DNA of 52,413 nucleotides, filler included, from Jimgerdemannia flammicorona (Eukaryota): the NCBI GenBank assembly GCA_003990765.1. It is 2 parts of 2 records of this genome, joined end to end, with 100 filler letters (N's around TTAATTAATTAA, not from the genome) between each part and the next. Parts side by side here need not be neighbours in the genome. Positions count along the whole stretch, not along the records: positions 1 to 26,158 come from RBNJ01000754.1; 1 more part is not named here. The stretch is one strand, 5' to 3'. Positions 1 to 34,476 of the stretch are shown here, one piece after another. The position numbers and the translations under genes are program-made. The first letter of the stretch is position 1. Each line of letters opens with the position of its first letter. The notes under the pieces were generated by a model. The model made no database searches and was not told the DNA's origin. It saw only the letters and a program-made list of their open reading frames with translations.

Positions 1-177
1 TTCCTTACAAGCAATCTAAGAGATAACAAGACAGTTAAAGATAAGAAGTTTGAGGACTATAAGACCTTGGGAAGGCACTCCAATAAGAACTTGCTTATAA
101 CAACTTGAGTTAGTCTAAGAGATATACCTTGAAGAGAATCTGGCATATTTGAAGGACTCAGCGACCACTACGTGACA
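1..177 (+). mobile_element. 3' end of an LTR (family B), cut by the window start
   Basis: Aligns closely with 38171-38350; both copies end at the same point in ...GTGACA (LTR-type CA terminus) and diverge immediately after. Confidence 0.8.
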
Positions 178-1134
178 ATATATAACATTAATGTTCGAAC
201 ATAGCAGTATCAGGAAATCAGGGCTTGATAATAAAAAGTTGATTGATGAAATCTGGGTCATAAAATACATTTATATGGTTGCTGATATAATGCTTTCAGA
301 AAGTTGCATCTTATTCCTACAGTTTGCGCCCTGTAACTCGACTAATTTGTAATGAACTCCACTCGTTTATCCTCCTATGGAATTTATGAGCTGCTTTCAT
401 AATAATATTGTGCAAGCACATGGCAGAAAGGGCCCATGGATGTAAGATCTCCGAGATTTCGTGGTGACTTGCATGTGCCTGCTGCGGCTTCATCACCCGC
501 CCACATGCTAAATCTAGGCCGATGTGGGTTGCTATAATTGGCTTGGGAGGTAAAGCTCACACGAGCACGAGGAATAAACATTAGGCAGAACATATTTGTA
601 CGGAGAGCATCCAAACCTTCCACGGGGCCGGCCCCGCTGCACGCTCCTAACTATTACGTCAATCCTGTCCAAGGACCAGCTGCATAAGGATCGTCGGTAG
701 GATCGGGTATGTGATGACTGCGTTTGAGGCTGGATACCCTCTTTGCTAGATGGTGGAGGATACCCTTTCGTCACTGTACATACGTCACATCTTTCGAGCG
801 CTTCATTCATTTCCGTTGCTTCCAGTTTCAACCAGGAATACATATTAGAAAAACAAGTTCGATTGCACAAAATCCGGGTCCCAGCTTCGAATTTATATCT
901 ATGCGAAATTACTTTAACGGAGCTTTATTCTTGACAAAAGAATCATGCTCGACTTTCGAAGTTCGTGAAAATGAGCCACAAAACGTGTATAATCCAATAA
1001 TTGTCGTTTATATAAAATAAAATCAGATGAATAATGAACCCAAAAAAGAAAGTGCGCGTGAAGAGCGAATAACTCTAACGACAATAAACAACGACGAAAA
1101 GGGGAATAGAACGAAAAAATACCATGAATACATT

Positions 1135-2579
1135 TTAGAAGCACAACACATCGCACATGTCCACAACCCTTTTAATTGTGATCCTATCACCTTCCCATTT
1201 AATGTTTGCGACACCCGGTGATATGGTCATAAAAATTGTCAGATCTTCTTCCGCCGAGGATAGCGAATCAACATTGTTGTACAGATCGTCCCGAAATTTG
1301 ATAGCACCAAGCTCTTTAATTCCTTCGGCTCGTTCGGTATTGCGGATACTTTGATCGCTTGCGGAACCCGCAAAGAACATCACCATCTCGCCATTTCCCA
1401 TCACCTCCATTTGCAGCTGAGCATGGATGCAGAGATACACTAGTAATCGTATGCTCGACCGAGATTGCCGTACGCTTTTCTCGTTGCCAAATCTAGAAAG
1501 GGTCTCGATTACTGAATCGGTCTTAGCGTCCAAGAACGAGAGCAGATTCTCCCGGATGGTATGCGCGTTGTCCGGCAGATCGGAAAATGGATCGTAGTTA
1601 ACGTCTGCCTGGAATTTATCTTCGACGTTCATTGGCTCGGGGATTTTGTTCAGCAGAAGGCTCGAAAATTCGGATCCCACACGCACCACCAGCATAGCAA
1701 TTTTCGATGACTTGCTCAGCTTCGAATCCAACGCTTGAATCTCATCAAAGATTGTATCGTGTGTGGCGAAGACTTTGTCGGCTGGTCGTAGAGAGATTGG
1801 GTCGTTAAGAAGAACGGTATTCCAGATGGTAGCCAACTGACTACTGATTCCATGCCTAACAACGCGTTTCAGGACGGATTTGCTGGGTTGTGTGCCGGAA
1901 AAGCTGTTCACTCGCTCGTTATACCATTGGTAGATATTTTCGTAACGTAGTGTTTTCTGTTTAATCATGCTCTCAATAATTTTCACTGTCGTCTGAGATA
2001 TCTTCATCAGAATATCTTTGAACGTGACAGGGTTAGCACCATTCATTGCGAAGACCCCGCTGTTGCTGACGGATCCATCTCGATAAAGGCTCCTTTCGAG
2101 TTGAACTTGCTTCTCCAAGTCTATAATCTTCCTCACCATCGTCGTTCCTTGGTTCTTCCTATCTTCAATTTCATTAATATACTTGTCCTTATCATCGCGC
2201 TGGCGCTGAAGTTCATACTTGAGTTCCGCGATTTGCCGTTTTAGCTGTTCAAGCTCCTTATTTTTTCGTTCTAACTCTTCGCGTAGCGTCTCAAGTTCCG
2301 AATGTATCCTTTCCGTGGTGGTCTTGGAATTGTCGGATTGTGTGTTGTTTTCCCGGGGATATACTACACTATTGGTTTGGTGCCCATGATCGCTGGTTGG
2401 CGCCGTGGTGTCACGACTGGCTTGTCGAGGTGATATAAACTTTTTAAGTATCCGCCGAAACTGTGGTGAAGAGTGGTCATCATGAGCGTTAATACGGTTC
2501 GGAGGGTGAACGAAAGCCTATTGATCTTAGCAGCTGGACTTACGTATTGCCATAATGATAATAGGGATGCGCATCGCAT
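1135..2579 (-). CDS. Coiled-coil protein with putative GrpE/Mieap-like C-terminal domain, copy A1 (~453 aa; exons 2579-2544, 2460-1135)
   Basis: The frame of the 334-aa ORF stays open upstream to 2517 and encodes heptad-rich ELETLREELERKNKELEQLKRQIAELKYELQRQ. An 83-nt GTAAG...CCACAG phase-0 intron joins it to the ATG at 2579; the same ATG context (ctactgaaATG) and intron occur in copy A2. The family assignment is inference from the terminal motif pattern. Confidence 0.85.
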
Positions 2580-3686: not shown

Positions 3687-6600
3687 ATGTCATTCTTTGC
3701 ATCGTCGTCTGGGGCAAATAAAATGCCGGTAAAATTCGATGATAGCCCACGCGCTATCGTCGCGATTGACTTCGGAACCTCTCATTCCGGTTATGCTATG
3801 GTGAGTTTTACTATGGTTGACTTAATCCCGAATCCTTTGTCATTCTACATTATTTGAATATTTCGTATTCTGATCCGAGAATCATCCATCATACTCGCGC
3901 TCACAAATTATTAGATGCATGTCGCAGACACCGATGTCGATGCGCGTTATGACTGGGATGATGCACCTCAGCCATACTGCAAAAATCTCACATCTATTCT
4001 TTACAAGTATGATCCAAGTACCGCAAATCCCTCCGTCGAAAATTGGGGGTACACTGGTACGAGTTGTTTCCATCCTTGATCTCCCCGAAGAAAAAAAATA
4101 AAAATAAAATTACTCACAGACTTTTTGCACATCTCTACCGTCCATGTAATGCTATGCAGCAAAAAAAATAGCAATGAGGAATATCTCCAACGCCAATCAT
4201 CAATACATCGATCGCTTCAAGCTCTATTTGGACGAGAAAGTCACAGATCTGCCAGCACTTCCCGCAGGAAGAACCGCATTGGAAGTGATTGCAGACCTTC
4301 TGCGAAACTTGTACGTCATGATTCTTTCAGACATTGAGGCCAAATGGGGTGGCACAATAGGCGCCGATAACATCATTTGGTTTTTAACCGTACCCGCGAT
4401 GTGGACGGAGAAAGCGAAGCAAGGCATGAGGGAGGCCGCAGCCATGGCGGGGCTGGTAAGCTATTTTATTGCGCGTGACATGGTCTTGAAGGTTTATCAA
4501 GCAGATTCTATATTTAATAATGTATATACATAATACACTCTCATGACCTTCAATGCATTAAGGTTCCGAAACCCTACGAAAACAGCCTCAAGCGACTGAA
4601 AATCGTATTGGAGCCGGAGGCCGCAGCAATGGCATGTTGTCAACAATCGGAACAGTTTTCACTTGTACCTGGAGAAACATTCATGATTGTTGATGCTGGT
4701 GGGGGAACAGTTGATTTGGTGAGAATGGTTTACTATGTTTCTTTAGAATCATGAGTCGAACGAGCCTCTCCTTATTACCAGTTATCCCTCTTCTCTATCA
4801 AAGACTGTCCACGAAATTCTTCACGATCCGAATACCAACATTGAGTCGCTACGGGAGATTTCTCGTGGGCACGGCAAATCGTGTGGATCTACATTTGTTG
4901 ATGAAGAATTTCTCAAATTTTTCAAAGGAAAACTTGGGGCAGATAATGTTGAAAATTTTCGTGCGTCGAACATATCAGCTTGGTTTAAAATAATGAAAGA
5001 GTGGGAAGGTCTCAAGGTATGGGAGCACTTCAAAGTATTTTATTTATATACGCTCGTAGTAAAGGTATAGGGCGATTGGTTGTTTAATTTCAATTTCACT
5101 TATACCGTTTCCCCTCTAACCTCAAACAGTGTAGTTTTAAAGGGAGTGAAGACCAAGAGGAGTATACTATTGAACTTCCATCCATGTTGCGTAAAATCCT
5201 ACCCAGAAAAAAAAAAGATGTCGTCAGCTACGAATCCGGGAATGAAGATGACGAAGATGGCGAAGACGACGACAAAATCACTATAACCGCAGCAGATTTT
5301 CGTAGAATGTTTGATCCAGTTATCAATGACGTGCTAACACTTGTGGAAAGCCAGCTACAAGATGCTTGCCATGCGCTCGATATAGAGCGACAGGAAATTC
5401 TGCCAAGACCAACATCATATCCGTCGGTGCGAGTGTGATTGATAAGATGTTCTTTGTTGGCGGATTCTCGAACAGCCCATACTTGTGGAAAAAAGCCAAA
5501 GAGAAATTCGGTTCCCGTGTAAAACTGTTCCGGCCCAGTGACCCTGGCAGTGCTGTTGTTAAAGGAGCTGCGTGGTGCGGCAGATTTCCACGGTATGTTA
5601 TTGAGTTGCTCATAATTAGCATAAGCTAACATTGAACATTGATTGGCAATCTCATCAGCTGCTAACCCCAAACGTGACATTATTTAAAAAAATAGATTTA
5701 TCAGTAGTCGCCGTAGCCGACTCACTTATGGTATCAAAACCTCCGGGCCTTGGACTCCCGATAACCCAGCTGGGGAATCGGCAAAAATATGGAACGAGGT
5801 TCGTAATTTCTAGGTTCCATATACTTTGGAACTTATATGGCTTATATCATTATGGAAACTTGATATCAGCGCATAAAACGTCAGAGAACTCAAAATAAAC
5901 ATGTATAGCTAATATGATTTAACTTATGATGTGGTATTCCAGGATGAACAGATGGACTATGCAGATAATTTATTCCATGTCATAGTAAACATAAATCAAG
6001 AGGTGGGAATCAAGGAGGTTATTTCAACTCCGTAAGTATATATATACCCTATATAATTTCTGAACTTTGTTTGCTGTGACCCTTCTGATGGCCAGATTTC
6101 TACTCATTTGTGCCGAAACAGGTTTATTCCGGTCAATTCGGATCAAGATTTCGCTGAATTGGAACTATACACAACTGATTTACCGAACGAAACGTACATG
6201 ATCCCTTCCATGAAACTTGGGCCAACGTTAAAGGTGCCACTTACCACAACCGCCATTGAAAATTCGCTCCCTTTGAGAATCCAATTTGTTCAAGATGTGA
6301 GTGGCAGTATGGATGGTGAAAAGCTTCTTGCATGCAAGGACGGGCTTAAAGTAATTAGCCGAAAATTTGCAAACGAAGTCGATGAAGTTGGTCTGATCAA
6401 ATTTGGACCCGCTGTTGAGATCGTCAGGTATTTGCAATATACCGAATGGTTCATGTCATTTGAATTCAATTTTACCAATCTTAATAATGCTCGGCTCTTA
6501 CGTATTTCGATACATTATCAACTAGCGCGATTCAACCGCATTCAACTAACATTGAAAACGAGATCGATAGTCTTTGCGTCGGTGGTATGACCGCTTTGTA

Positions 6601-7078
6601 CGACGGCATCGTTAAAGGAGTCCAAATTCTCAAGGAACGTGAAGAAATCTCCGGGCAGTCAGAAACAAAGAACATCCTTCTGGTCTGCACGGATGGAGCA
6701 GAGAACTACTCCAAAACCAAATTTTCTGAGATCGAAGCTCTGCTCAAAGACCCAGGTATCTCCAACTTCAAAACGATACTTGCCATTGCTGGGGACGTGA
6801 ACACAAACGCTGCGCTCCATCAGCTATGCACTTCGGACGAGTGCAAAGCATATTGCGAAGTCATTCATGTCCGCGATTCCGGAGATGGTATCAAGGAGGC
6901 ATTCAGGGCGATGGATAAAAAAGTGCAGCTGCTCAAATCCCGTCATTTGCTCGAAGGCAAAGCCATCAGGTTAGATATGGAATTTGGGGGAACACATATT
7001 GAGGCAGAGGCCTTCGTTAAGGCATCTGGGGCGAGGAAAACCATTACGATGGATTTTTATGCAAAGAGATCCGAGTAA
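3687..7078 (+). pseudogene. HSPA12-like Hsp70 with inserted VWA domain, copy B1, 1-nt frameshift in exon 6 (pseudogene or sequence error); exons 3687-3800, 3915-4056, 4160-4455, 4563-4718, 4804-5016, 5130-5592, 5696-5798, 5943-6031, 6122-6427, 6526-7078
   Basis: Hsp70 motifs [64 protein letters not shown] motifs DVSGSM, GGMTALYDG, VCTDGAEN; all introns GT-AG. Spliced length 2435 nt is not divisible by 3: CAG-GAAAT-TCT (5391-5401) versus CAG-GGACAA-TCT in B2 leads to TGA at 5436-5438. Confidence 0.85.
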
Positions 7079-9564: not shown

Positions 9565-11078
9565 TTAGAAGCACAACACATCGCATTTGTTCTCAATCTG
9601 ATCACCAATTGTGACCCTATCACCTTCCCATTTGATGTTCGCGACGCCCGGTGAGATGGTCATACAAACTGTCAGATCTTCTTCCGCCGAGGATAGCGAA
9701 TCAACTATGTTGTATAGATCGTTCCGAAATCTAATGGCATCAAGCTCTTTAACTCCTTCGGTTCGTTCGACGTTCCGGATACTTTGATCGCTTGCGGTAC
9801 CCGCAAAGAACACCACCATCTCGCCATTTCCCATCACCTCCATTTGCAGCCGAGCATGGATGCAGAGATACACCAGGAATCGTACGCTCGACCGAGATTG
9901 CCGTACGCTTTCCTCGTTGCCAAATATAGCAAGGGTCTCGGTTACTGAATCGGTCTTAGCATCCAAGAACGAGAGCAGATCCTTCCGGATGTTAAACGTT
10001 TTGTATGACAGATCGGAAAACGGATCGTATTTGACGGCTGCATGGAATTTATTTTCGACGTTCATTGGCTCGGGGATTTTCTTCAGTAGAAGGCTTGCAA
10101 ATTCGGATCCCACACGCGCCACCAGCATAGCAATCTTCGATGACTTGCTCGGCTTTAAGTCCAACGCTTGAATCTCATCAAAGATTGTATCGTGTGTGAC
10201 GAAGACTTTGTCGGCTGGTCGTAGAGTGATTGGGTCGTTAAGAAGAACGGTATTCCAGATGGTAGCCAACTGACTGCTGATTCCATGCTGAACAACGCGT
10301 TTCAGGACGGATTTTTTAAGTCGTGTGTTCTCAGAGTTGGAAAAGCTGTTCACTCGCTCGTTATACCATTTGTTGATATTTTCGTAACGTAGTCCCTTCT
10401 GTTCACTCATGCCCTCGATAATTTTCACCCTTATCAGAGATATCTTCTTCCAAGTCTTTGCGAACCTCTCAGGGTTAGCACCATCCATTACGAACAGCCC
10501 GCTCTTTTGTTCGCTGACGTATCCATCTTGAGTTGGTGGGCAAAGGCTCCTTTCGAGTTGAATTTTCTTCTCCAAGTCTCCCATCCTCCCCGCCATCGCC
10601 GTTTTTTCTTTAGTATACTTGTCCTTCTGACGCTGAAGTTCGTTCGTGAGGTCCGCGACTTTCCGTTCCCATGCTTTAACCGTGTCTTTTAGCTGTTCAT
10701 GAAACTTCTCCTGGTGTTCGAGTTCATCCTTGTGTTTGATATTGGTTTGTTCTAACTCTTCGCGTAGTGTCTCAAGTTCCGAATTCAACTTTTCCACGGT
10801 AGTCTTGAGATCGTCGGACCGTGTGTTGTTTTCCCAGTGATGTAGAACTTCCAGCTCGGTGCCCACAGTTGCACTATTAGTTTGGTGCCCATTATCACTA
10901 GTTGGCACCGCGGTGTAACGATTGTCTTGTCGTGGTACGGATTTCTTAAGTACCCGCAGAATCTGCGGTGAAGAGTGGTCATCATAAGCGTTAATACGGT
11001 TCAGAGGGTGAACGAAGGCCTATTGATCTTGGCGGTTGGACTTACGTTTTGACATAATTGGGATGTGGAAGGTGGCAT
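9565..11078 (-). CDS. Coiled-coil protein with putative GrpE/Mieap-like C-terminal domain, copy A2 (~476 aa; exons 11078-11046, 10962-9565)
   Basis: The 447-aa ORF frame is open upstream to 11019. Exon 1 MPPSTSQLCQN joins through an 83-nt GTAAG...CCGCAG phase-0 intron. Long N-terminal heptad region; clear paralogue of A1. Confidence 0.85.
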
Positions 11079-12012: not shown

Positions 12013-15000
12013 ATGTCGCCCTTTGCATCGTCATCTGGAGCAAATGAAATGCTGTCAGAATTCGATGATAACACACGTGTTATCGTTGCTATTGACTTCG
12101 GAACCTCCCATTCCGGTTATGCTATGGTGAGTATTACTATGGGTGACTTAATACCGAATCCTTTGTCGTTCTACATTATTTGAATATTTCGTCTTCTGAT
12201 CCGAGAACCATCCATCATACTCGCGCCCACAAATTATTAGATGCATGTCGACGACACTTCGGCCGCTGTCGAAGCGCAATATCGGTGGAAGAATCAACCT
12301 CAACCATACTGCAAAAATCTCACATCCATCCTCTACAAGTATGATTCAAGTACAGCGAATCCCTCCGTCGAAAATTGGGGATACACTGGTACGAGTTGGT
12401 TCCATCCTTGCCCTCCTCCCCAAAAGAAAATGACTCATAAACGTTTGCACATGTCTACCGTTCATGTAATGCTATACAGCACGGAATTTGGCGATCGGAA
12501 AAAAATTAAAAGAACGACAATATATCGATCGCTTCAAACTCTATTTGGATGAGGATATCGCAAACCTACCGGCACTTCCCACAGGAAGAACCGCATTGGA
12601 AGTGATTGCAGATCTTCTACGAAACTTACATGTTATGATTCTCTCAGAAATCGAGGGCAAATGGGGTGGCATGGTGGGGGCCGATAACATCGTTTGGTTT
12701 TTAACCGTACCCGCGATGTGGACGGAGAAAGCGAAGCAAAGCATGAGGGAGGCCGCAATCATGGCGGGGCTGGTAAGTTATTTATTGCGCCTGTGTAGCG
12801 TAACCATGGTTTTGAATATGTAACTGGCATGTTATATAATTACATAATGTACATAATACACTCCATGTCCTTCAATGCATCAAGGTTCCGGAAAATGAAA
12901 ACAACCTTAGGCGACTGAAAATTGTTTTAGAACCGGAGGCCGCAGCAATGACATGTTGTCAACAATCGCAACAGTTTTCGCTTGTACCTGGAGAAACATT
13001 CATGGTTGTTGATGCTGGTGGCGGAACAATTGATTTGGTGAGAATAATTTATTATGTTTCCTTAGAATTATGAGTCGAACGAGCCTCTCCTTATTATCGG
13101 TTATCCTTTTTCACTATAAAGACTGTTCACGAAATTCTTCACGATCCGAACACCAACACTGAGTCGCTACGGGAGATTTCTTGTGGGCACGGAAAATCGT
13201 GTGGATCTACATTTGTCGATGAAGAATTTCTCAAATTTTTCAAAGAAAAGCTTGGGGGAGATATTATTGACAGTTTTCGCGCATCACACGGGGCACCTTG
13301 GTTAGAAATAATGAACGCGTGGGAAGTTCTCAAGGTATGAGAGGACATTCAAAGGCCTTTATTTACGCTCGTGATAAAGGTATCGGGTGATTGATCATTT
13401 AACTTTGCACCGTTTTTCTCTAACATCAAACAGTGTGGTTTTGACGGAAATGAAAATGCAAAAGAGTATATTCAACTTCCATATAAGTTGCGCCAAATCC
13501 TAGTCAGAAACAACACAGATGTCTTCAACAACTACGATTCCGATAGTGATGAAGAGGAATTCGACAAAGTTACTATAACAGCATCAGATTTTTGTAGAAT
13601 CTTCGATCCAGTCATCAATAACGTGATAACACTAGTTGAAAAACAGCTACAAAGAGGTTGTCATACGCTTGATATAGAGCGACAGGGACAATCTGCCAAG
13701 ACCAACATATCCGTCGGCGCATGTGTGATTGATAAGATGTTTTTTGTTGGTGGATTCTCGAACAGCCCATATTTGTGGAAAAAAGCCAAAGAGAAATTCG
13801 AGTCCCGTGTAAAAATGTTCCGGCCCAGTGACCCTGGCAGTGCTATTGTTAAAGGAGCCGTGTTGTGTGGCAGATTTCCACGGTATGTGATTGAGTTACT
13901 CATAATTTAGTTAACATCGATTATTAATCTCGTCATCTCCTAACCCAAAACACGACATTAATTAAACAAATAGTTTCATCAGTAGTCGCCGTAGCCGACT
14001 CACTTATGGTGTCAAAACCTCCGGGCCTTGGACTCCTGATAATCCGGCTGGGGAATCTGTAAAAGTATGGAACGAGGTTCGTAATTTCTAGGTTCCATAT
14101 ACTTTGGAACTTACAGGGCATATACATAACATATCTTTATGGCAACTTGATGTCAGTGCATAAAAATCCAGAGAGCTCAAAATGAACATGCATAGCTAAT
14201 ATGATTTAACTTATGTCGCGGTATTCCAGGATGAGCAGATGGACTACGCAGATAATTTATTTCATATCATAGTAAATGTAAATCAAGAGGTGGGAATCAG
14301 GGATGTTATTTCAACCCCGTAAGTATTTATATTATTCTTGAACTTTGTTTGCTGTGACTCTTCTGATGGTCGGATTTCTACTCATTTGTGTTGAAACAGG
14401 TTTATTCCGGTCAGTTCGGATCAAGATTTTGCTGAATTGGAACTATACACAACTGATTTATCGAACCAAAAGTACGTGATCCCTTCCATGAAACTCGGGG
14501 CAACGTTAAAGGTGCCACTTACCACAACCGCCATTGAAAATTCGCTCCCTTTGAGAATACAATTTGTTCAAGATGTGAGTGGCAGTATGGATGGTGAAAA
14601 GCTTCTTGCATGCAAGGATGGACTTAAAGCAATCTGCCGCAAATTGGCAAACGAAGCCGATGAAGTTGGTTTGATCAAATTTGGGTCCGCTGTTGAGATC
14701 GTCAGGTATTTGCAATATTCCGAATGGTTCATGCCATTTCAATTACAATTTTACCAATCTTAATAATGCTCGGCTCTTACGTATTTCGATACATTATCAA
14801 CTAGCGCTATTCAACCGCTTTCAACTAACATTGAAAACGAGATCGATAGTCTTCGTGTCGGTGGTATGACCTCTTTGCACGACGGCATCGTTAAAGGACT
14901 CCAAATGCTCAAGAAACGTGAAGAAATCTCCGGGCAGTCAGAAACAAAGAGCATCCTTTTCGTTTGCACGGATGGAGAAGAGAACAGCTCCAAAACCAAA

Positions 15001-15357
15001 TTTTCTGAGATCGAAGCTCTGCTCAAAGACTCAAGTATCTCCAACTTCAAAATGATGTTTGCCTTTGCTGGGAACACGAACACAAACGCTGCACTATATC
15101 AGCTATGCACTTCGGACGAGTGCAAAGCTTATTGCGAAGTTGTTCGTGTCCACGATTCCGGAGATGGTATCAAGGAAGCATACAAGGCGATGGACAAAAA
15201 AGTGCAGCTGCTCAAATCCGGCCATTCGCTCGAAGACAAAGCCATTAGGTTGGATATGAAATTTGGGGGAACGCATATTACAGCCGAGGCTTTCGTTGAG
15301 GCATCTGGGGCGAGGGAAACGGTTACGGTGGATTTTTATTCGAAGACATACACATGA
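12013..15357 (+). CDS. HSPA12-like atypical Hsp70 with inserted VWA domain, copy B2, intact (~806 aa); exons 12013-12126, 12241-12388, 12480-12772, 12885-13037, 13122-13334, 13434-13882, 13974-14076, 14230-14318, 14400-14705, 14805-15357
   Basis: Nine GT-AG introns give a 2421-nt open frame. Actin-fold ATPase motifs [46 protein letters not shown] / GGMT / CTDG; HSPA12-type tail [32 protein letters not shown]. Confidence 0.92.
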
Positions 15358-19272: not shown

Positions 19273-20099
19273 CCTCGTAAATCGTCGGTGATATAAATTA
19301 TGAGTAACATCTTTTTGTGATACATATATATATTTTGTGGTATAATTACGAGTACGTCTTTATATGGTGACATCTCATATAGTGACATCAATCTTTCCCT
19401 TGGATTAGATATGCTTCGCGAAAAAAAATATCCTTTTATAAAACTCATTATACAAAAGGAAAGCCTCTCTCATATCCTCCTATTTCTGCTTTCGCCCTTT
19501 CGCAACCTTTCTATTGAATTATTCACTGTCCCTATTCACCTCGCAAACATTCTTGTGATAGCTGTATGATCATAATTTAGCCCCTCATGGTTCTTCTCAA
19601 TTTCGTCCTCCCAAACTCTCAACCGTATTTTTTACGTACGGAGCCAACTGAGGCCAATGAAAAAGGAGTTACTAGTGCTTCCACCATCGGAAACTCTGTG
19701 GTGTTGATGGTGATAAAGTAATTGCCGTTCGGCTCTATGCTTTCCCAGGATAAATATCTTTCGTCAGATTGCAGCAATCTATTATTTCGTCCAACGATGA
19801 CAAGAACGATCCTAAATATCAGATGTACTATTTTTATGTTGGATCAGGATTCCAGGATCCTTAATAATACTCGCAAACGATCTGACATACCAAACAACCT
19901 TGCTGTCCCACGGAAGGAGGACAAGTCACGATATACCCCAGAAGCATTCTGAGGCAATAAATTTCAGATACTCACGTGTAAGACTGATGGAGGAAAAACT
20001 CAATAGGAATCATTAGATTTGTGTGTGGGCTCCTGAGGCATATCTGATACTGAATTGATAATAAATTATATCTCTTCAGAAATACTCATAGAAGTACTC

Positions 20100-21720
20100 T
20101 GCTAAGTATCAATAATGAACTCTAAACATTTGTAAGATAAAAAAATTTCAATATTTATATCTATATATTAAATATCTGTTATATTGGATCTTATTAAGTT
20201 TTATTAGTAACTGTCATACTAGTTCCTACACAGTATTTATTAAGAAACCTTAGATGATAATACTATTAAAAGTAATAGAGATAACTTATTAATATAAACT
20301 TTGTAATATAGTATATAAGTAGTAGTATTAATAATATATATCTCTTAATCTGTTATATATCTGAATTGGATTGTAAAAATAAAATTTCAAAATAAAAATA
20401 AAAAGATCAAAAATATTAAATAGAAATCAAAAAATTAAATTGCTAAAAAATTTACTTTTATTTTTTTTAAATATATTATAATTTTTTTTTTTTATAATTT
20501 TATAATAAATATTAAGTCAAAAAAAAAAAATTAAAATTAAAATTAAAAAATTAAAAAAAAATTTACAGCCAAATTTAGCTATAAAATGCATATGGAACAA
20601 ATTTAATAAAGCTTAAACTATAAAGTTTGATAACTTATCTCATAAGTTTAGACAAAATAACTAATATATAGTTAATATTAAAACTAAATTATTTGTCATT
20701 TTAAATATATCCCTTTGACTGTAGATAAGATTGTCTTTTAAAATTATTTAGCAGATAAATTAAAGTTTGAAAAAAATGATTTTTTGAAACATTGTTTTTC
20801 TGTTAAAAATATATCTCAATTTGTTTAAAAACAATTTTTTTTTTTTTTATAAAATTTTTACCAAAGATAGAATTATTATATAAAAAATTATTGGTAAATT
20901 TTTTTTTAAAAAGCTATTATGATTTTAAAAGTTATAAACTTTTAAAATCTTGCCTCTAAATATAGGTGCAAAACAGTCAAAGGAATATGTATTTTTATTT
21001 TTTATTACTAGAAATTTATATAATAAATATATATTCTATCTAAAAATTTCTTTTTTATAATTTAAATTTATTATTATTATTTATTATTCATATTATCTAT
21101 CTATATATCAAAGTTTATTTCTAATATTATATTATTATAATTCAGTTTTATTGAGTTAACAAATATGATAATAGTTTATTTGCTTAAATAAATATTATGT
21201 AAGTTAGTATTTATATAAAATAATAATATAAATATAAAAAATTAATAGTAGATATAATATATTTATAATTTATTTTAGTCTAAGTATTTCTAAATAGTTC
21301 TGATAATTAGAAAAGATAAAAAAAAAAAAGAATATTATAATTTTAAAACTTTAAAGCAAATTACTTTATTTAAGTTTAAGTTATTGAGATATATAATAAT
21401 TTAATTAAGTAATTTTATATTTTAAACATAACTATTATTAATAATAAATTTATTTAAATTATTTTTAGAATATTATTAATTATTAATTATTAAACCATTT
21501 CAGTATATATATATATTTTTTTTAAAAAAAAAATTAATAAACGTAAACTAAAACATAAATATATTATAATTTTATAATTTACTTATAAAAAATTAATTTT
21601 TAATTTTTATTTTATTTTTATAGTCAACTTTATACTGTATGCCCATTTAAATACAAATTAACTAAGGGGTTTATATATATATTAATATTCATATCTATTT
21701 TTATGTCTTTTTATTAAAGG
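20100..21720. other. Extremely AT-rich non-coding block, probably a heavily C-to-T-decayed repeat
   Basis: No ORF >60 aa, almost no CpG, long A/T runs, abrupt return to normal GC at ~21725. Origin from a decayed TE is inference. Confidence 0.7.
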
Positions 21721-22068
21721 TTTAGTAGACAGTAATGAAAAGGAATGTGGATCGTACAGAGGAGGCGGAGATTTCACTTACATACCACGCTGTGTCCTTC
21801 CTAACTCTCATAGAAGCGTTGGCTCAAATTTTCGAAAAGGGCGGGACCGTGCTGACGATGGCTTGGTTGGTGTTCAAGCACTGCAAGTCAGATGTATTCG
21901 GCCACGTAGGCATGAAACTGCGCAGCTGCACGATGGAAGTGATGGCGGTGATGTCATGGCAACTAATGCAGTCCCGTCACGTGGGTGTGAGCAGCCCCCT
22001 TTTTCTACTTCATCTGATAACGAACACACGAACCACAGTGAATATCCCCCTACCTCCTCAACCCTACC

Positions 22069-24292
22069 ATGTCCTTCCGCCATCCCGAAAACGCCCACAC
22101 CGACCGCCTTAACATCGCCCACAAACGTATCGGCTCCGTCGACCTGCCTCACCGTCTCTTTAGCCAACAGAAACGACGCAAATTTGCCGACACGCCGCAA
22201 AGTAACGGCAGAGTGTGGCACGAAGAAGGAGACTATCACCACACCAACGCGCCCGCTTTTCTACCCTCTCCTGCTGATGTGATAAAGGAGAATGATAGGT
22301 TGGAGTCTGAGCTGAGAGAGTTCATAAGTGCCGGAAACAACTTCTACCACAACGCCACGCCAAGCGACCCACCTTTCCCCTCCTCCTCCATTGGCACCGG
22401 TATCCATCTGCCATCGGCCACTGGAATGCAGAGGATGGGCGGAATGGGGTCTGAATCGAAAGAAATTACGCGAACCGGATCCAATTTGCACCATGACGAT
22501 AGACGTATCCACCCGCCCTCACCGTTCCCGGCTTTGCCTTGCAGCGACTCACCTTCGCCGCAAGCACATGACACAATATGGCCCGAACTTAGAGAACCCA
22601 CAAAAGCCAGTCACGGCTACTGGCGTAAAACCCTTCCTTCGCTCTCCTCACGCTCGCCGTCTCCGGTGTCGAAGTATCGTGATGAGGCCCGCGAGTCTTA
22701 CCATGGCGACATGTTCACCCGCTTGCCGTCACTTACTCGCTCAATTTCCCCCCGCTCCGCATCCTTGACGCCGCCTCTGCATTACAGTAGTGAAACCGCG
22801 CATGTCCCCCACGGCAACACGCATTTAAACTACCCCTACGGAGGCGTGCTCACACACCGGCCCTTGCTCCCAATCGCTAACTTCTCACACACCGCGCCGG
22901 ACTTGCACAGTGGCGGCGTGCAATCGGCCTCTGGCCCAACCTCCACATCGTTTCAATCAGCATCTGACTTGTACAACGACGACAGGCTCACCGAACTTCC
23001 TTTGCTGGCCCCGCCAAACGTTACCCGCGCCGCGCCCGACTGCTACCCTAGTGACATGCACACGGGTGACCTACCTCCTTCCTTCCTACATCCGACATTT
23101 TTAAAAGTGACATGCTTACCTTGTCTCTCTCAAACTTCTTCCTCATTCAGATATCTCCCATGGTGAAAGGCCTTCCCTAGCCGTCTTCAACCCTTCACAC
23201 ATGGCACCGGACTTCAATCGTGGACACACGTACCCGACGTTCGACTCACCCTCTCCCCACGTCGCAGCCGATTTCTACAAAACAGATATGCGCCCGGTCT
23301 TCACTCTCACGCCTCCCCACGTCGCATCCGGCTTCAAAAAATTAGACATGCTCACTCTCTATCCCTCGCTCCCACCCTCGGACTTTACCTACACTGTACC
23401 CGATTTATATAAGAGCACTGCACAATCGCTTCCACCACACACCTTCTCTAACCCCGCACCGAACATTCACCAACGCGACACGACCGACCTCTCCTCCTCC
23501 GCTTCATCCGGGTCCTACCAAAGCGACACGCTCACCCACCAACCGCCTACTAATCACTCCCACACATCATCGAGCTTCCAGCCCGTCAACACCGAACTAC
23601 TACCTCACCACGGCCTCATCTGGCTCCCTCCAAACGCCTACCTCCGCGGCCCGCAACCCCAGCCCCCCACCTCCCGACCAACACCAAAGATTCTCTGCAT
23701 TGATCTGACGTCCTCCCCTTCGCTCTCCCCCAGAGCGTCGGTTGACATGGATGAAGTTGTTCAGGATCCGGTAACATTTGACGCAAGTTCGAGGCCGACA
23801 TACGGAATCTCATCCTCCAGAGCTTTGTCTTTCGAACCTCCATTGCACGTATCTCCTTCTCCCGCCATCACCCTCGGCCGCCCCACCGGCCACGCTCGCG
23901 GCTCGCGCAACCTCCCCAGGCACGCGACGAACACACTGAAGGATTGGCTTGTTATCCACAAGCATCACCCATACCCGATGGATTGGGAGAAGGAAGGGTT
24001 GGCGCGCTCGACAGGGCTCTCCGTGAACCAGGTCGATCAGTGGTTCATCAATGCTAGGAGAAGGTATCTAGAGGTTGAGAAAGGAGAGGGAATGGGCAGC
24101 GAGGAAGTGGAGGTGGATGAGTTGGGGAGTGAGTGTGAGAGTGAGAGTGGAGGTAGAGAGGTAGATAGTGCGATAGAAGAGAAGGAGAAGGAAGAGAAGG
24201 GAAAAGAGAAGGAGAAAGCAGAGAAGGAAAAAGTGGAGGAGAAGGGGAAAGAGGAGAAGGAGATAGAGGAAAAAGACGATAAGGAAGAGTAA
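22069..24292 (+). CDS. TALE-class (KN/TGIF/Cup9-like) homeodomain transcription factor, with a frame break at ~23050-23200 (intron or frameshifts)
   Basis: Homeodomain RNLPRHATNTLKDWLVIHKHHPYPMDWEKEGLARSTGLSVNQVDQWFINARRRYL (~23906-24070) with the PYP loop and WFINARRR. Two consecutive Pro/Ser-rich ORFs (22069-23166, 23201-24292) in different frames share an internal repeat; Glu/Lys-rich tail. Confidence 0.8.
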
Positions 24293-27639: not shown

Positions 27640-28067
27640 ATGCATATACAATATTTAAGGAGAAAGATCTATAGTCTTTATAATTTAAAAACAGAACCAC
27701 CAACTCTATAACAATCTATATTATCCCTGGACTAGTGAAAATGAACTTTGTTTATCAAATTTCTTATCTTCAAATCAAAAATATCAAATAGAGTGACTGA
27801 TGAATTTATGGATGCTATCAGTAAAGATTATATAGTAATAGATAGTTTGAATGTCTTGAGTCACAGTATATAGATATTATCAAAGACTGACAATGCAATC
27901 TATGTTCTGAAATATATATTTGAATACTAAAGCTGATCATATATTATTATATATATTAATTCATTTATATATAATTATATATATAGAAAATCTTTAGAAA
28001 AAATATTCCACCTTTCTAAAATTATGAAATATGGACTGGAGAGTATGTCCTCTATTATCAAAACCCC

Positions 28068-28527
28068 TGTAATGGTTTTAGTTTCTTTAAGAGGAAGTAA
28101 CTAAGTTCAGGTGATTCTGGTAGACCTGAAGTAGTTCAAAAAGATACTTAAAGGTTTTAGTATTCTCAAAGAAATTCTGGAAGAAAATATTCTGAGCTTT
28201 ATTCAAGCAAAGAATAAGGATATTTATAGAATCTAAAAGAAAGATCTGAAAGGTTCTCTGAAAAAAAGCAAAAAGCCAAAAAATGGGTTTTCAGCAAAGA
28301 TGACTAATAATATTCTACTATATTCCAAAAGGTTCTATAACTAGCTAAGATATAAGACTTAGTTCTAAGAAAAGACAAAAATGTTCTAATGAAGTCTTGG
28401 TGCTAAGAGAAGATTTCCAGACAATCAAAAGATGCTGGAATAAGATAGAATATATAAGAAAAGGTAAGAAAAGACTAGCAAAAAAAATACTAAGACTAAA
28501 ATATGATAATGAAATTATTACATCACA
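28068..28527 (-). mobile_element. 3' LTR (family C, ~460 nt) of the chromovirus remnant
   Basis: Imperfect inverted termini TGTAATG...CATCACA; on the minus strand it follows a purine tract (AAGAAGAA, 28528-28535) and contains TATAAAT then AATAAA; lies downstream of the integrase once the LINE is removed. Confidence 0.65.
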
Positions 28528-28637
28528 TTCTTCTTAAGAACCAATGTTCTTATTAATTCTTAGGTAATATAAGACTAAATATACTTAACCAAAATTTCTA
28601 AAACTTATATTGGTATATTGATAAGAACTAGCCATCC

Positions 28638-31600
28638 CGGTACCTCTTAGGTTACACAACTTTTGGAAAGCAACTACAATATCGTTTTTGGAGAAAAGAG
28701 ACTAGCAACATAGTGACTGACAGGCAATCTGAGGTGCATACTGGGTAGGGTGGCCCGAGCGCATTTGACTGGCAGCACATGGGGAGAGGCCCTGGCCTGG
28801 GGGGAGATATGAGGGGGCTGCTGGTAGGTAGATAAGGTAGGGAAGGAGGCAGAAGTAGAGGACAGAGATCAGAGAGGGTGAGCTTTGTGAGACAGTGAAG
28901 GGGAGAAGGCAGATGATGGGACTGGAGGGTTGGTTGAGAAAAGGCAAGGAAATGGAGAAGGCAATAGTACATGGGAGAGTAGCCCTTGGCAGAGGGAGCA
29001 GTGGGGCTGGAGGTGTAGCAGCTGGGGGGAGTGTGATGGCTGATGGAGACAGGACTGCTAATCTGGAAAAAAATCCAGATGTGACAGTGGATGGTGCAGC
29101 TGAGTGACTGGGGCTTGGGAGATAAGGAGATTTGGCAGATGGTGTGATAGGCCTGGCAGTGGCACCATTACTCAAAAAATCGATCTCAGTATTTGCAGTA
29201 ATACTATGCTTCCAGGACAGCAAAAATGGTACTGGGGCTGATTGCTAAGCAGGTGGCTGGAGTGGCATCTGTAAAGTTTTTGAAGAGACTGGATGGAGTG
29301 GAGGTGGGCTTTGAGGAGGCTGAGCCTTTGGAGAAAGTATTGAAGGTTGGATTGATAGTTGGAGAGGTGTATGTTCCAATGGCATGGTGCCTGAAATGGG
29401 ATCCCAGAGTGATCCAACTGCTGGTGAAAGGGGTGCTCACAGTGACAGTGATGGAGACAAGAAAGAGAGTTGAGAAGGTTATAGCAGAGTATAGAGAGTT
29501 GGTGGATATTGGATTCAGGGTCTGGGAGGGGACCTCACTCAGGACTGGAGATGTAGATGTGAGGATTCAGCTGGCAGAAAAGGAGGCCACCAGGAAGACA
29601 GGGACTGACCTTCCAGTATAGTCTGGGGGGTGATCATGTGCAAGGTAACAAGGGTGAAGGAGAGTGAGGAGGAGGAAGAGGACCTATTGGAAGTACTGGA
29701 AGAGTTGAGTGGTGTGGTGGAATGGCAGGTGAAGGCTTGGAAGGCCTTTGAGGAGGTGAGGTAGTGGATGGGAAGTAGATTTGAGTGAGTAAGGAGCAGT
29801 AGGAATGAGATCAGGGATATAAGAGACAGAGGGAACTGCTGGTGAAGATGAAGGGTAGGCCTCAGAAGGATATGAGTAAGATGGTGGACATGGGGGGGGC
29901 CAAAGTGAGTGTCTGGGCAGGTGAGGGAAGTGGGAGTGCTGGGAAGGGGACTGGCAAGAACAGGGAGGTGACTGGCAAGGACCTGTATGCAGATGGTATG
30001 CTGGAGGTTTGGGATGAGACATGGGAGGACTCTCCTACCCCTACTTCCCTTATCAGGTGGGGCCCAGCTTTCCAAAGTAGGGTGGTAGAGAATGTATCAA
30101 TGCAAGGGGCCCAGTGAGTGCAATTTGGAGTCCTGGAGATGGCGAAAGGGGGACAAGTGGTGGCAGTTGGTGAGGAGGAACTAGTGGACATCCCAGAGGA
30201 GTAGGATGAGGCTGTGAGTGCTGGGGCTGACACCACAATGCTGGATGGTGGGAGGCTGGCGACCTCTGGAGGAAAGGAGGTGGGGAACCTACTTTGGATA
30301 TGCAGGATAATGAACAACCTGGTGGCCAAGGAGCTGGGAGAGGTGGATTTGAGGGTAATGAGTGATGAGCATTGGGTGAGAATCCTGTAGAGGGAGGGGG
30401 TGGTGATGGCATTGAAGGCAGAAATTCTTGCAGTGTATCTGGAGGAGGAGGGCTATGAGGTAGATAAGGAGTGGGAGGCAGAGATGGCAGGAGTTGCAGG
30501 AGAGAGGGCTGAATACTGCTGGACCAAGTATCATGGACTGTAGCTCTGGCAGGAAGCCTGTCTGGAGTACCACGAGGAATTCAAGGAGAAGGCAGATGGG
30601 GAGATGAATGAACTGTTGGCTGGACTGGAGGCTCAGAGGGCTGAAGAGGAGGCAGTGACCATAGAACATAATCTGGACTCGGCACAGGAGGAGATAAATA
30701 TAGAGCAGTAAAGAAAGCTTGATAATATACCATTTTTTACTATAAATAGTACAACTAACATTTTTTCTTTGAACATGAATGGGTTACAGGGTACTCATCA
30801 ATGTAAGAACATTTTTACTTGGCTGAAGGGATTGGAGGCCAATCTCTTCCTCTTGCAGGATGTCAGGTGTGAGGATGACTTGGATAGACTGGAATGGATG
30901 AAGGAGTGGGGAGGTGAGACAGTCTGGAAGGGCAAGGTTGGGATTCTGGTGTAGAAAGGCAGAGGGGAGATAAGGGATATGTGGAGCTGGGGGGATAGAT
31001 TGGTCTAGGGAGAGTGGATACACACAGATTGGGAGCCAGTTATGGTGGACTCCTATTACTGCCCTGCAGTACAGGGTGAGTGTGTGAATTGGGTGAAGAG
31101 TCTACAGGATAGTGGAATTCTTGTAGAGGTTGGGGTGGATGTGCTCAGGGGGGACTTCAATATGGTCCAAGATGTGTTGAGGGATAGAACTGATGGAGGA
31201 TAAGGAGCTGAGGGTCGGAGTGGAGGACTGGCAGCATGGGAGGAAGTGGAAAGACTGAGTGCTCTGGTGGATGCAGGTAGAGAATGTTGGGGGGATAGGA
31301 GGGTATATATGCACTGGGCTGGGGGCCTGGAGATGAGGATTGATTGGATTCTGACCTGGGGCTTGGATGTTTGGAAGTCACTAGAGGTGGAATGGTGTCC
31401 TTGGTCGGATCATTGGGGGCTTTTAGGGCAGGGACATTTTGGGGGAAGTGGGGATGGGCCTGGACATTGGCATCTCAATTCCTCCTTACTAGATGATAAG
31501 ATCCAGTGAGATGAGTGGGCTGAAGACATTCAACTGCAAGTGGAGTACTGGAAGCAGAAAGGTGCCCCAGTTGCTATTCGGTGGATGAGGATGAAGGAGA

Positions 31601-34476
31601 TGGCCAGGACCTTCTGGAGTGAGGCTGGTAAGGAGGCTGGGAAACAGAGGAGGTGGCAGGTGCAGTGGGCTTCTAGTAGACTGTCTAGACTCTTGGAGGA
31701 ATGGGCAAGACTGGTGACATTGGAGGGGAAGGAGGACTGGAGACTGATAAGAGTAAGATTGGAGGTGGTTAAACTACAACAGATGCTACGGAATGAGGAA
31801 GAGGCAAGGGTCCAGGGTCTGGTGGCATAGCTTCATTGGCAGGGGTTGGAGGAAGGAGAGCAGCCCTCAAAGTTTCTCACAAGAGCTCTTTAGGCAAGAA
31901 GGGTGCAACAAAGATAGGAGGGGGTGCTTGATGCTGATGGTATATTAGTGCATAGTGTACAAGACATTCTTGGATCATTAAAGGAGTATTGGAGTGGATT
32001 ATAGAGTGAGAAGGAGGGTGGGGCAGATACTGAGGACATTGACTGAGCGTTGGAGGATTGGCACCCTATACAAGCAGATGGGCTGGGTGACTTAGTACTG
32101 CTAGTGCAAGAGGAGGAGATCTGCCAGGTTCTTGCCACAACAACTTTGGGTATGGCACCTGGGCAGGATGGTCTGCCCTGGGACTTCTGGAAAAAGATGG
32201 TAGGAGTCTCAGGAGTACTGAAAGAGATGATGGCACTGTATGATTGGATTCTACAGATGGGGAGATGGGTGGGAGACCAGGATCTGGGGCTGGTGACATT
32301 GCTTTATAAAAACATAGGAAGGCGAGAGGACTGGAAGAACTAGAGGCCAATTATTCTACTGGATATGGACAGAAAGTTGGTTACCAAGGTGGTGGTCACA
32401 AGGTTGCAAAAGGTGGCCCAGCAAGTCTTGGGTGATGAGCAGAGGGGCTTTGTTGGAGGCTGGCTCATCAGAGATGGCACAGTATGTGTTCATGGAGTTA
32501 TTGAAGGGGCACAAGCCAGTGGACTAGATGAGTATCTAGTCTGTCTGAACCAGGAGAAGGCTTATGACCAAGTGCAATAGGTCTGGCTGGTGAAAGTATT
32601 GGATAGGATTGGGGTCCCACACCAGTTCAGAACAGCCATGGTCAGCCTACTGGAAGGAAGTAGGGCTGCACTCATGTATAATGGACACAGAGAGTTAGCA
32701 TTTCCCCTGGATAGGGGGGTGCCCCAGGGGGACCCACTGTCCCCCATTTTGTATGCTCTTTCTCTGGAGCCTTTCATAGATAGAATCAGGCAGAAGATAG
32801 TGGGACTCTCTATCTTTGGCATTGGGTGGAAAGTAGGGGCATTTGCAGATGACATAGTGGTCAGCCTGTGATTAATTGCAGATGTAGAGAAGCTCAAGAA
32901 GACAGTGGAGTGGTATGAGGCAAACTCCAGGGCTAGGCTTAATTGGCATAAGTGCAAAACATTGGTGTTAGGCAATGGTCTGGTGGGAGGGGAGATTATT
33001 GGTACCATTATCCCTACTGGTGAGGCAGTATGGTACTTGGGTACTTATATGTCAGTATATGGGTCAGTTCTGCCTAGACTTTGGTGGGAGCAGTGGGTTG
33101 GCATCTGGGAGGAGGCCCTGTAGAGTTGTGGGGGCCACCAACTGTCTCTGGCAGGATGCATTTCAATTCTGAACGTCTATTGGCTGCCAAAGTTGTGGTA
33201 TCTGGCTTATTATCTGGACTTCCCAGCTTGGGTGGTGAAGTGATTGATGAAGCTGGCCAAGGGGTGGATCTGGGCTGGAAGGCAGAGTCAGATCAGCTGG
33301 AAGGTCTTATTCTTACCAGTGGTGAGTGGGGGACTTGGGCTGGTGGACTTTCCTAAGAGGCTGCACTGCTTGAGAGCATGGTGGCTAAAGTTAGTGGTGG
33401 AGTTGAGAGGGGGTGGTTGGGTCCCCCTACTGCAGAAAGTCTGGGAGATGAGGTCCTCTCCAAGGGGTTTGACTGGTAATCTCCTAGCACTTGTGGACCT
33501 TCAGAACACTGAACAATTGCAATACAAAGGCTTCTGGTGGAGAGTGGCAGAGGGGGCATGCTGCATTGGAATTAGGTGGCAGAGAAATGAAGGGGAGGCA
33601 GCTTGGGACCCAGCGATGTGGAGATGGGACCAAGTGTTACTGAGTGGTATTCCCTTAATTGAGTTTGACATTTGTAATGAGATTGAATACCAATGGGGAC
33701 TGGGCCAGGACCTGTGGCCTAGCAGTTGGCAAGGAGTAGGAATTGGCGAGGAGTGGGACTAGCATAGTATTTGGGCCTGGAGTGCTGAGGTGAGGTGGTG
33801 GCTGCTGCCAAAGTACTGGGTGATCTGGTGGTGTGTATTGAGGCAGAATGTCATGCTCAACTTCTGCTCAGATCACCTTATTGAGGAAGGTTGCTTCGAC
33901 TATAAAGAGTGTTTAAATGTAGGGCAGGAAGGGGAATATGTACAGATGCCTGAACATTGGCTAGGAGAGTGTGAGGTACTTAGTACCTTTTGGAAGAACA
34001 TTGGGGATCATTTGGAGGTAGTGTGTAGGGGAGCTGGCATGTGGGGGTAATGGGAGGATTTAAGGGATAGATTGGAGGGGGGGGTGGGGAAGGAATGACT
34101 GACATTAGGCTGGGCTTTGGCCATTTGGGTGGGGCTGGCCAGTCACTGGTTGTTTGTTTTTGAGGATAGGAGGATACTTGGCTCAGAGGTCAGGCTGCTG
34201 AGGTAGCATAGCCTTATGGAAGACACCTTGACAGGCTGGTGGCTTGGTTGAGGGTTACAGGGGGGTCGAAGGTGTCATTTGATAGAGAAAATCTGTAGGC
34301 AGAGTGGGGGGAGGGTTAGAGTTGTGGGTGAGAAAGTGGTCTTTGTTCATATAGGTGGAGGGAGTGGTACTCCTATGGGGATTGGGTAGTGGAAGAGTCT
34401 TCTGTAAACTTATTGATAGATAGGTAATAAATGGCAGAGTCCAAGTGACTATAATAAAAAAAAAAAAAAAAAAAAA
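28638..34476 (+). mobile_element. Full-length (~5.8 kb) L1/Tx1-like LINE, inactivated by stops and frameshifts
   Basis: 15-bp target-site duplication AAGAACTAGCCATCC (28623-28637 and 34477-34491), AATAAA running into a poly-A tail, ORF1 remnant ~28700-30710 and ORF2 with EN, RT and C-terminal Cys/His motifs. Confidence 0.93.
30742..34389 (+). pseudogene. LINE ORF2 (APE endonuclease - reverse transcriptase - zf-RVT-like), multiple in-frame stops
   Basis: EN motifs SLNMNG, LQDV, GDFN, RIDWIL, SDHW; RT motifs PGQDGLP, QEKAYD, GVPQGDPLSPILY, AFADD, YLG; C-terminal C...C...EHWLGEC. Start codon reads ATA where copy 3 has ATG (49944). Confidence 0.9.

Follow-up and report, generated by a model that had tools for sequence, protein, structure and literature searches.

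Is the VWA domain encoded by an Hsp70-type gene of the fungus Jimgerdemannia flammicorona appended to the end of the protein, or is it built into the C-terminal beta domain, and what might it do there? The gene, hereafter B2, lies on the plus strand of a eukaryotic stretch of 52,413 nucleotides made of joined parts of two records of assembly GCA_003990765.1 (hereafter, the window). An initial annotation, made from the sequence of the window, had placed the VWA inside the beta domain, in place of a short loop of HSPA12 proteins. It had also described a spliced product of 806 amino acids (aa), a metal ion-dependent adhesion site (MIDAS) with all residues intact, and the same layout in a second copy of the gene. 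These points held up, whereas the length of the VWA region, put at ~220 aa, was revised to ~203 aa (aa 565-767). Three independent kinds of test agree that the VWA is inserted inside, and not appended to, a domain resembling the beta part of the Hsp70 substrate-binding domain (SBD-beta); a two-piece profile match, the predicted structure of a homologue and the pairing of its flanks all bear this out.

Gene structure and reading frame

The rebuilt B2 gene comprises ten exons in an open frame, and all of its introns (9/9) have GT-AG boundaries. From N- to C-terminus the product consists of an Hsp70-type ATPase, a beta segment, a VWA of ~200 aa and 44 aa of beta strands. The features of the gene are as follows.

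12013..15357, plus strand: B2 gene, 10 exons, 806 aa
12013-12126, 12241-12388, 12480-12772, 12885-13037 and 13122-13334, plus strand: exons 1-5
13434-13882, 13974-14076, 14230-14318, 14400-14705 and 14805-15357 (stop included), plus strand: exons 6-10
12013..13882, plus strand: Hsp70-type nucleotide-binding domain, exons 1-6, ~aa 18-455
13974..14529, plus strand: N-terminal part of the SBD-beta-like domain (exons 7, 8 and the start of exon 9), ~aa 457-564, profile positions ~420-532
14530..14705, plus strand: first part of the VWA insert, aa 565-622, with the MIDAS DxSxS at 14572-14586
14706..14804, plus strand: intron 9, 99 nt, GT-AG, with two in-frame TAA, interrupting the VWA domain
14805..15222, plus strand: second part of the VWA insert, aa 623-762, with MIDAS T645 and D679, an LCxSxxCxxYC motif and the last VWA helix
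15223..15357, plus strand: C-terminal tail and stop, aa 763-806 (44 aa), stop at 15355-15357
~15244-15264, 15274-15297 and 15313-15333, plus strand: three tail strands, which complete the SBD-beta-like domain

Exon 9 runs without a stop from the beta segment (aa 550-564, with FIPVSS upstream, ending at 14529) directly into the VWA, and exon 10 encodes the GGMT and CTDG motifs, then the tail segment of aa 768-801 (from 15238) and then the stop. Both VWA junctions are therefore located inside exons and neither coincides with an intron; the sole intron of the VWA region (14706-14804) sits within the VWA itself. A public partial gene model from Jimgerdemannia flammicorona (P0007, 162 aa) is identical to aa 495-656 of B2 and thus joins exons 8, 9 and 10 exactly as our model does.

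The VWA interrupts an HSPA12-type beta domain

A profile of 575 positions was built from 54 VWA-less relatives of 545-625 aa, with Endogonales paralogues left out. B2 matched this profile in two pieces, with aa 18-564 aligned to positions 6-532 (508.7 bits) and aa 756-803 to positions 527-573 (10.4 bits, conditional E 7e-6). Scored alone, the 51-aa tail of B2 reached 16.5 bits, which none of 2000 shuffled tails attained (highest 5.4 bits; reversed tail, -0.6), so the tail match is not due to chance. In all of the VWA-bearing sequences tested (9/9), the tail that follows the VWA matched positions 516-573.

Alignment of the family with its VWA-less relatives (alignment A4) showed that the relatives have a loop of a few residues (e.g., ...DISSTVGTLDRP / VLVSLNFGKTEIA...) where the family carries ~200 aa. 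This alignment was made with MAFFT and at most 12 distant VWA-less rows, beyond which VWA-only fragments lose register. A 105-row alignment (A3) was not used because VWA-only fragments were misplaced in it, and hmmalign, which put the tails into insert columns, was of no use for display. VWA-less relatives named HSPA12A-like or HSPA12B-like by their sources share their C-terminal strands with the B2 tail; the C-terminus of P0129 reads ...TFAETEIKVEA...KVDFLQD and that of P0053 reads ...MKFGGTEIEVTG...KVDFL. Given that the last ~40 aa of B2 align with the C-terminal strands of VWA-less relatives, P0129 and P0053 included, the VWA stands in place of the short loop.

The Hsp70-type part of the protein was identified in the same way. 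Using phmmer, B2 matched relatives of ~576 aa with E-values of ~1e-90 (over aa 20-575) and P0053, named HSPA12B-like by its source, with an E-value of 1.1e-83, and its ATPase motifs (aiDFGTs, vlEPEAAA, vvDaGGGT and VGGFs) were matched in the profile alignment. Pfam PF00012 matched the relatives P0039, P0031 and P0129, and matched neither single exons of B2 nor P0020, a 783-aa Endogone protein that is 55% identical to B2. PF27033 is the precomputed domain listed for many of the relatives, and an Atlas look-up of exon 6 returned PF00012 clusters (score 0.92), which we take as a lead only. Sequence searches of the PDB with exons 6 and 3 yielded chance matches only (e.g., dUTPase and SspH2), and no match was obtained when exon 10 and exon 6 were used in word-seeded searches of longer proteins.

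Predicted structure of a homologue

An AlphaFold2 (AF2) model was made for P0020 from a 34-row alignment, with a mean predicted local distance difference test score (pLDDT) of 83.5 and a predicted template modelling score (pTM) of 0.71. In this model the ATPase domain extends to ~residue 432 and is followed by eight strands at 437-545 (pLDDT 86-93), a classical VWA from strand 550-557 to helix 718-737, and tail strands at 746-752, 756-763 and 769-775 (block pLDDT 77, 90 and 84, respectively). The joints are short, with ~4 residues leading into the VWA and ~8 leading out of its last helix. The alpha-helical lid (SBD-alpha) is absent, as only 7 residues follow the last strand. Absence of the lid argues against a canonical Hsp70, not against membership of the Hsp70 superfamily, and matches the lidless HSPA12 type.

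The best Foldseek matches of the P0020 model were DnaK, BiP and Hsc70 chains comprising the ATPase and the beta basket (E ~1e-17). VIA-align placed residues 20..780 of the model on residues 2..505 of DnaK, with 430-445 residues aligned (Z ~26), as compared with ~320 residues over 19..434 of the model for chains holding the nucleotide-binding domain only; for the nucleotide-binding domains of DnaK and Hsc70 the Z scores were 24.6-26. The ~110 extra aligned residues must therefore be located in the beta domain, and the alignment reaches the end of the tail. In the DnaK beta basket, the insertion site would roughly match one of the outer loops, probably that of the L5,6 region.

The two flanks of the VWA in P0020 (433-549 and 738-783) were also folded as two separate chains. 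The interface score (ipSAE) was 0.68, 0.68 and 0.67, against 0.02 for the best of three controls; as a benchmark, 51/78 solved complexes attain the mark used for this score, compared with 2/108 mismatched pairs. Contact agreement in these runs was at least 81% and partner pLDDT at least 69. Strand 501-507 runs antiparallel to 745-752 and residue 542 contacts residue 761, and the predictions support one sheet built from both flanks of the VWA, as the initial annotation had expected of the beta domain.

The VWA domain and its MIDAS

Judged from sequence, the VWA of the B2 family is a real and complete domain. P0020 matched Pfam VWA (PF00092) with 46.6 bits (residues 552-717), and this Pfam model (174 positions) was matched over positions 3-167 by P0002 and 2-165 by P0020. 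Exon 9 of B2 on its own matched Pfam VWA_2 (PF13519) at 27.0 bits, which equals the cut-off (27), P0007 matched VWA_2 with 35.1 bits, and the second half of the B2 VWA on its own had no Pfam VWA match.

The MIDAS residues of B2 are D579, S581 and S583 (DxSxS, 14572-14586), T645 (14869-14871) and D679 (14971-14973). They are also present in the tandem copy described below and are kept in family members down to 32% identity. Among the family rows covering each motif, DxSxS was found in 10/10, T in 11/12 and D in 9/9, and the sole miss is the T of P0033, whose gene model is garbled there. The DxSxS, T and D of P0002 align with the MIDAS of ITIH1 (PDB 6fpy; E 1.4e-4), the closest solved VWA by sequence. 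PDB entry 6fpz, in which Ala replaces the first MIDAS Asp in the aligned sequence, was matched at the same place. Searching the PDB with profile A1, from which the DxSxS columns had been dropped, found nothing. The initial annotation had proposed an integrated ligand-binding, sensor or decoy domain; an intact MIDAS would favour real ligand binding over a dead decoy.

A three-cysteine motif (LCxSxxCxxYC) is located within the VWA at 15103-15135 (6824-6856 in the tandem copy) and is conserved in most members, with P0020 and P0006 lacking its first Cys. These cysteines may bind a metal or form a disulfide.

A tandem copy and transcript-like contigs

The same layout was detected at 6252-7078, in a tandem paralogue of B2 (hereafter, copy 1).

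3687..7078, plus strand: copy 1, with 87% nucleotide identity to B2 and the same exon plan
6252-6427 and 6526-6943, plus strand: VWA insert of copy 1, with the tail at 6944-7075

Relative to B2, copy 1 has a 1-nt deletion in exon 6 (~5394-5398) that puts it out of frame here, with a stop after ...DIERQEILPRPTSYPSVRV. This frameshift may be strain-specific or an assembly error.

Two sets of contigs (X1 and X2) were inspected for splicing of the two genes. An X2 contig of 2593 nt (depth 63), intron-less and ~90% identical to B2, extends from before exon 3 to the 3' end. Rather than falling on separate transcripts, the ATPase part, the VWA and the tail are all covered by this one contig. Introns 4, 7, 8 and 9 are skipped at GT..AG, and the others with small offsets where the copies diverge. 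The contig shares a CAT insertion with copy 1 (after 13705) but lacks its 1-nt deletion, which indicates that it is derived from an in-frame copy-1-type gene; it is likely an mRNA, and less likely a processed DNA copy. For B2 itself, an exact-match X1 contig is spliced across intron 2, X1 record 5 starts at the acceptor of intron 9 (its eight loose letters being the end of exon 9), and X2 record 8 skips intron 9. In an X1 contig of low depth (3.3), the A7 run of exon 3 (12498) is longer by one A, which would break the frame. Protein homology continues through that point, and the cause is therefore probably a homopolymer error.

Relatives, phylogeny and selection

An exhaustive protein search with exon 10 found 17 proteins at E ≤ 0.001. 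The VWA half together with the C-terminal tail is covered by six of these proteins (P0001-P0006; 32-54% identical), and P0007 is 100% identical. P0002 and P0005 are uninterrupted open reading frames (ORFs) on two 1.1-kb environmental contigs and carry the beta segment, the VWA and the tail in that order. P0020 has the same architecture as B2 (422 of 769 aligned residues identical), and P0028, P0039, P0033 and P0022 are further paralogues from Endogonales. Starting from exon 4 of both copies, a word-seeded search (E up to 10) listed 120 relatives, P0020 and these paralogues among them. VWA-less proteins of ~576 aa are present in chytrids, Mucorales, basidiomycetes, cyanobacteria and animals, and among the 120 relatives listed, none outside Endogonales has a domain at the VWA loop. 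Other long relatives have N- or C-terminal extensions or tandem duplications. Three VWA-less proteins of 777-781 aa (P0041, P0056 and P0126) are extended at the C-terminus by 230-320 aa that Pfam does not match. Additional domains at other places in the family are appended, not inserted.

In a FastTree phylogeny of 39 sequences (558 columns kept; fragments, tandem-duplicate proteins and vertebrates not included), eight Endogonales sequences, B2 among them, form a clade (support 0.998) whose sister group is VWA-less spizellomycete chytrids (0.99), and the single HSPA12A-like animal sequence branches far from B2. As VWA-bearing members are found on both sides of the deepest split of the Endogonales clade and the sister sequences have no VWA, the simplest reading of these sequences would be a single insertion in the ancestor of that clade. 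P0022 is nested within the clade (0.926 with P0028) and has just a DxSxS-like remnant (LVDDTKSM) before its tail, and P0028 is without the middle of the VWA; in both cases, the cause could be secondary loss or the mis-splicing of a draft gene model.

Between B2 and copy 1, the ratio of nonsynonymous to synonymous divergence (dN/dS) was 0.49 for the VWA, 0.39 for the tail and 0.33 for exon 9, and it was below 1 in every segment but the 44-codon beta segment of exon 9 (0.91, from 8 differences). Synonymous divergence between the copies (dS 0.15-0.19) equals the divergence of their introns (Jukes-Cantor (JC) 0.153).

Coiled-coil genes head-to-head with both copies

Each of the two copies has a divergently oriented neighbour.

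9565..11019, minus strand: coiled-coil ORF, head-to-head with B2
1135-2517, minus strand: paralogous coiled-coil ORF, head-to-head with copy 1

Over 495 aligned columns these ORFs share 67% identity, and both have an N-terminal coiled coil and a conserved C-terminal region; their Pfam matches are coiled-coil only. Since each Hsp70-VWA copy is paired with a coiled-coil paralogue, what was duplicated, as a unit of 8.3 kb, was a pair of divergent genes. The Atlas placed these ORFs with large unnamed fungal clusters (0.93), with a weak lead to MIEAP (0.83). The coiled-coil neighbour is a possible, candidate partner of the Hsp70-VWA protein.

Comparison with known systems

Like the HSPA12-type clade of ~576-aa proteins annotated as Hsp70 family protein, B2 has a collinear ATPase and lidless beta domain that ends in the FG-x-T-E-I ... 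F strands, and unlike the relatives listed from outside Endogonales, it has a domain at the VWA loop. With respect to vertebrate HSPA12A/B, B2 groups with chytrid sequences in a tree without vertebrate members. The P0020 model shares the fold of the ATPase and beta basket with DnaK and canonical Hsp70 structures (PDB 4b9q, 7kru and 5nro; Z ~26). It differs from DnaK in having 13-20% sequence identity, no lid, a larger beta domain (11 strands) and the VWA in a basket loop.

A VWA fold bearing a MIDAS and inserted through two adjacent connections is known from integrins, in which the beta-I domain sits in the hybrid domain and the alpha-I domain in the beta-propeller, and in which movement of the last helix can pass to the beta-rich host domain. 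Unlike B2, integrins are extracellular receptors with an unrelated host domain, and the best integrin sequence match had an E-value of 0.81. Integrin-type coupling would be an analogy only for B2. ITIH1 (PDB 6fpy), the solved VWA that B2 relatives resemble most in sequence, is a secreted plasma protein without an ATPase, and the match spans only the first 110 residues of the VWA.

A pairing of an ATP-driven remodeller with a vWA is found in the MoxR system, in which, according to PMC7159879, an AAA+ ATPase works with a peptide-binding vWA co-chaperone. B2 differs from this system in that its ATPase is of the Hsp70 type, on one polypeptide with the vWA and with the vWA nested. No MoxR gene was detected in a Pfam scan of the 17 long ORFs (at least 110 aa) across the window, a scan that could miss spliced genes. 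Our literature search found no description of a VWA fused to, or inserted into, an Hsp70 or HSPA12 protein, though the supplementary catalogue of Hsp70 derivatives that accompanies a 2026 review (PMC13580251) could list such proteins. Neither of the two domains is new, nor is the general idea of a nested VWA; what is new is the host and the site at which the VWA is inserted.

Possible roles of the inserted VWA

We give slightly better than even chances to the reading that B2 and its copy encode cytosolic, lidless HSPA12-type Hsp70 ATPases in which the MIDAS-bearing VWA, set in a loop of the SBD-beta-like domain, docks a partner and may be coupled to the ATPase. As the partner-docking module, the VWA would hold a specific partner by an acidic side chain bound to the MIDAS metal. 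In the P0020 model, the last VWA helix passes within ~8 residues into the strand paired with 501-507. With both ends of the VWA anchored in the sheet, the ATPase cycle may affect partner binding and be affected by it, much as integrin beta-I domains communicate with the hybrid domain that hosts them.

Several points weigh against this reading. The docking and coupling steps are inferred. In full-length context the tail scores were modest, at 10.4 bits for B2 and 0.9-2.9 bits for P0005, P0020 and P0002. The structural evidence comes from P0020 rather than from B2, and the gene model of P0020 is without ~27 aa of the ATPase domain. An AF2 model of the P0005 fragment had a confident VWA with flanks of low confidence (block pLDDT 29-59 and 36-50), and as a prediction it neither supports nor contradicts the nested fold. 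VIA-align gives the ends of the aligned ranges only, and the assignment of the DnaK loop is thus an indirect one. That the contigs of X1 and X2 are RNA is a guess of the tool used, which lists no run as RNA on record. The frameshift of copy 1 in the present assembly, and P0028 and P0022 being without most of the VWA, suggest that some copies may be decaying, and a dN/dS near 0.5 indicates only moderate constraint.

That the arrangement is an annotation artefact, with the Hsp70 and the VWA in separate genes or with an appended VWA followed by an unrelated 44-aa extension, we find scarcely credible. Such an error could be suspected from the fragmentary public gene models of the family (P0003 and P0004 begin inside the VWA, and P0007 is partial) and from the missing Pfam Hsp70 match on single exons and on P0020; yet both junctions are stop-free inside exons, a single intron-less contig spans all parts, and the tail is homologous to the family C-terminus and pairs with strands upstream of the VWA. 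It is also quite improbable that B2 belongs to a lineage-specific fusion drifting to loss, with a VWA that has no specific function. The frameshifted copy 1, the missing VWA middle of P0028, the DxSxS-like remnant of P0022 and the match between intron and synonymous-site similarity of the two copies would all fit such drift. Against it, the MIDAS and the whole fold are kept across members that are 32-54% identical, dN/dS is below 1 outside the 44-codon segment of exon 9, a spliced, in-frame, transcript-like contig of the copy-1 type exists at depth 63, and P0028 and P0022 are draft gene models that may be mis-spliced.

The remaining explanations grant the VWA a function of another kind. We see an appreciable, if minor, chance that the protein is an immune or conflict sensor, with the VWA displayed as an integrated bait for foreign proteins and the ATPase reporting or amplifying binding, in analogy to the integrated domains of plant NLRs (nucleotide-binding leucine-rich repeat receptors) and to prokaryotic conflict systems that bear vWA domains. 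The family is multi-copy, tandemly duplicated and under moderate constraint (dN/dS ~0.5), as a sensor might be, while the protein and the 17 neighbouring ORFs scanned have no effector, death-fold or NTPase-oligomerisation domain, and a MIDAS conserved to 32% identity is a better fit to a conserved endogenous ligand than to an arms race. Published work adds to the case for a sensor: HSPA12 genes are massively expanded in bivalves (PMC13580251), prokaryotic conflict systems use vWA domains as co-chaperone and effector-coupling parts (PMC7159879), and CoCoNuT defence operons include TerY-type VWA proteins, with a Hsp70-like domain also listed in the figure key (PMC11090510). Rather unlikely, in our estimate, is a VWA that acts as a self-assembly or cofactor-docking module, either replacing the missing lid or binding the coiled-coil neighbour, possibly a GrpE-like exchange factor, in a dedicated two-protein machine. 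Here the head-to-head coiled-coil paralogues, duplicated with each copy as one 8.3-kb unit, count in favour, as does the lack of a lid in HSPA12A/B proteins (PMC13580251). Three of the five weak PDB matches of the coiled-coil neighbour are to human GRPEL1, but these matches are not significant (best E 0.23) and fall on a coiled-coil stretch prone to chance matches, and the Pfam scan of the neighbour gave no GrpE match.

A more specific form of coupling, which we consider doubtful, is an intracellular integrin-like switch, in which an acidic motif of a specific partner, bound at the MIDAS, would shift the last VWA helix, pull on a strand of the SBD and gate the ATPase cycle, or the reverse. The partner would perhaps be the co-duplicated coiled-coil neighbour (possibly GrpE-like) or a foreign protein. 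Such a switch, if true, would be a new coupling of ligand recognition to the Hsp70 engine and a first functional handle on the HSPA12 family.

Under the docking reading favoured here, a docking domain built into the substrate-binding sheet suggests which face of the SBD meets partners, and comparison of a MIDAS mutant with the wild type offers an experimental handle on an HSPA12-type Hsp70. HSPA12-type Hsp70s are widespread, humans included, and the 2026 review describes the function of HSPA12 as unknown (PMC13580251). Irrespective of the role of the VWA, B2 clearly illustrates how a domain can sit within the beta basket of an Hsp70.

Other features of the window

Two further ORFs in the window had Pfam matches.

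23111-24292, plus strand: ORF of a TALE-class homeobox protein (Pfam Homeobox_KN, E 4.6e-16)
43488-44039, minus strand: ORF of a retroviral-type aspartyl protease (gag-asp_proteas, E 6e-9), a retrotransposon remnant

The composition of the window is uneven at 20001-22000, 28001-34000 and 48001-52000. The first of these (20-22 kb) is very AT-rich (GC 0.198), and strong GC skew (+0.34 to +0.51) extends over long stretches, which points to strand-biased repeats.

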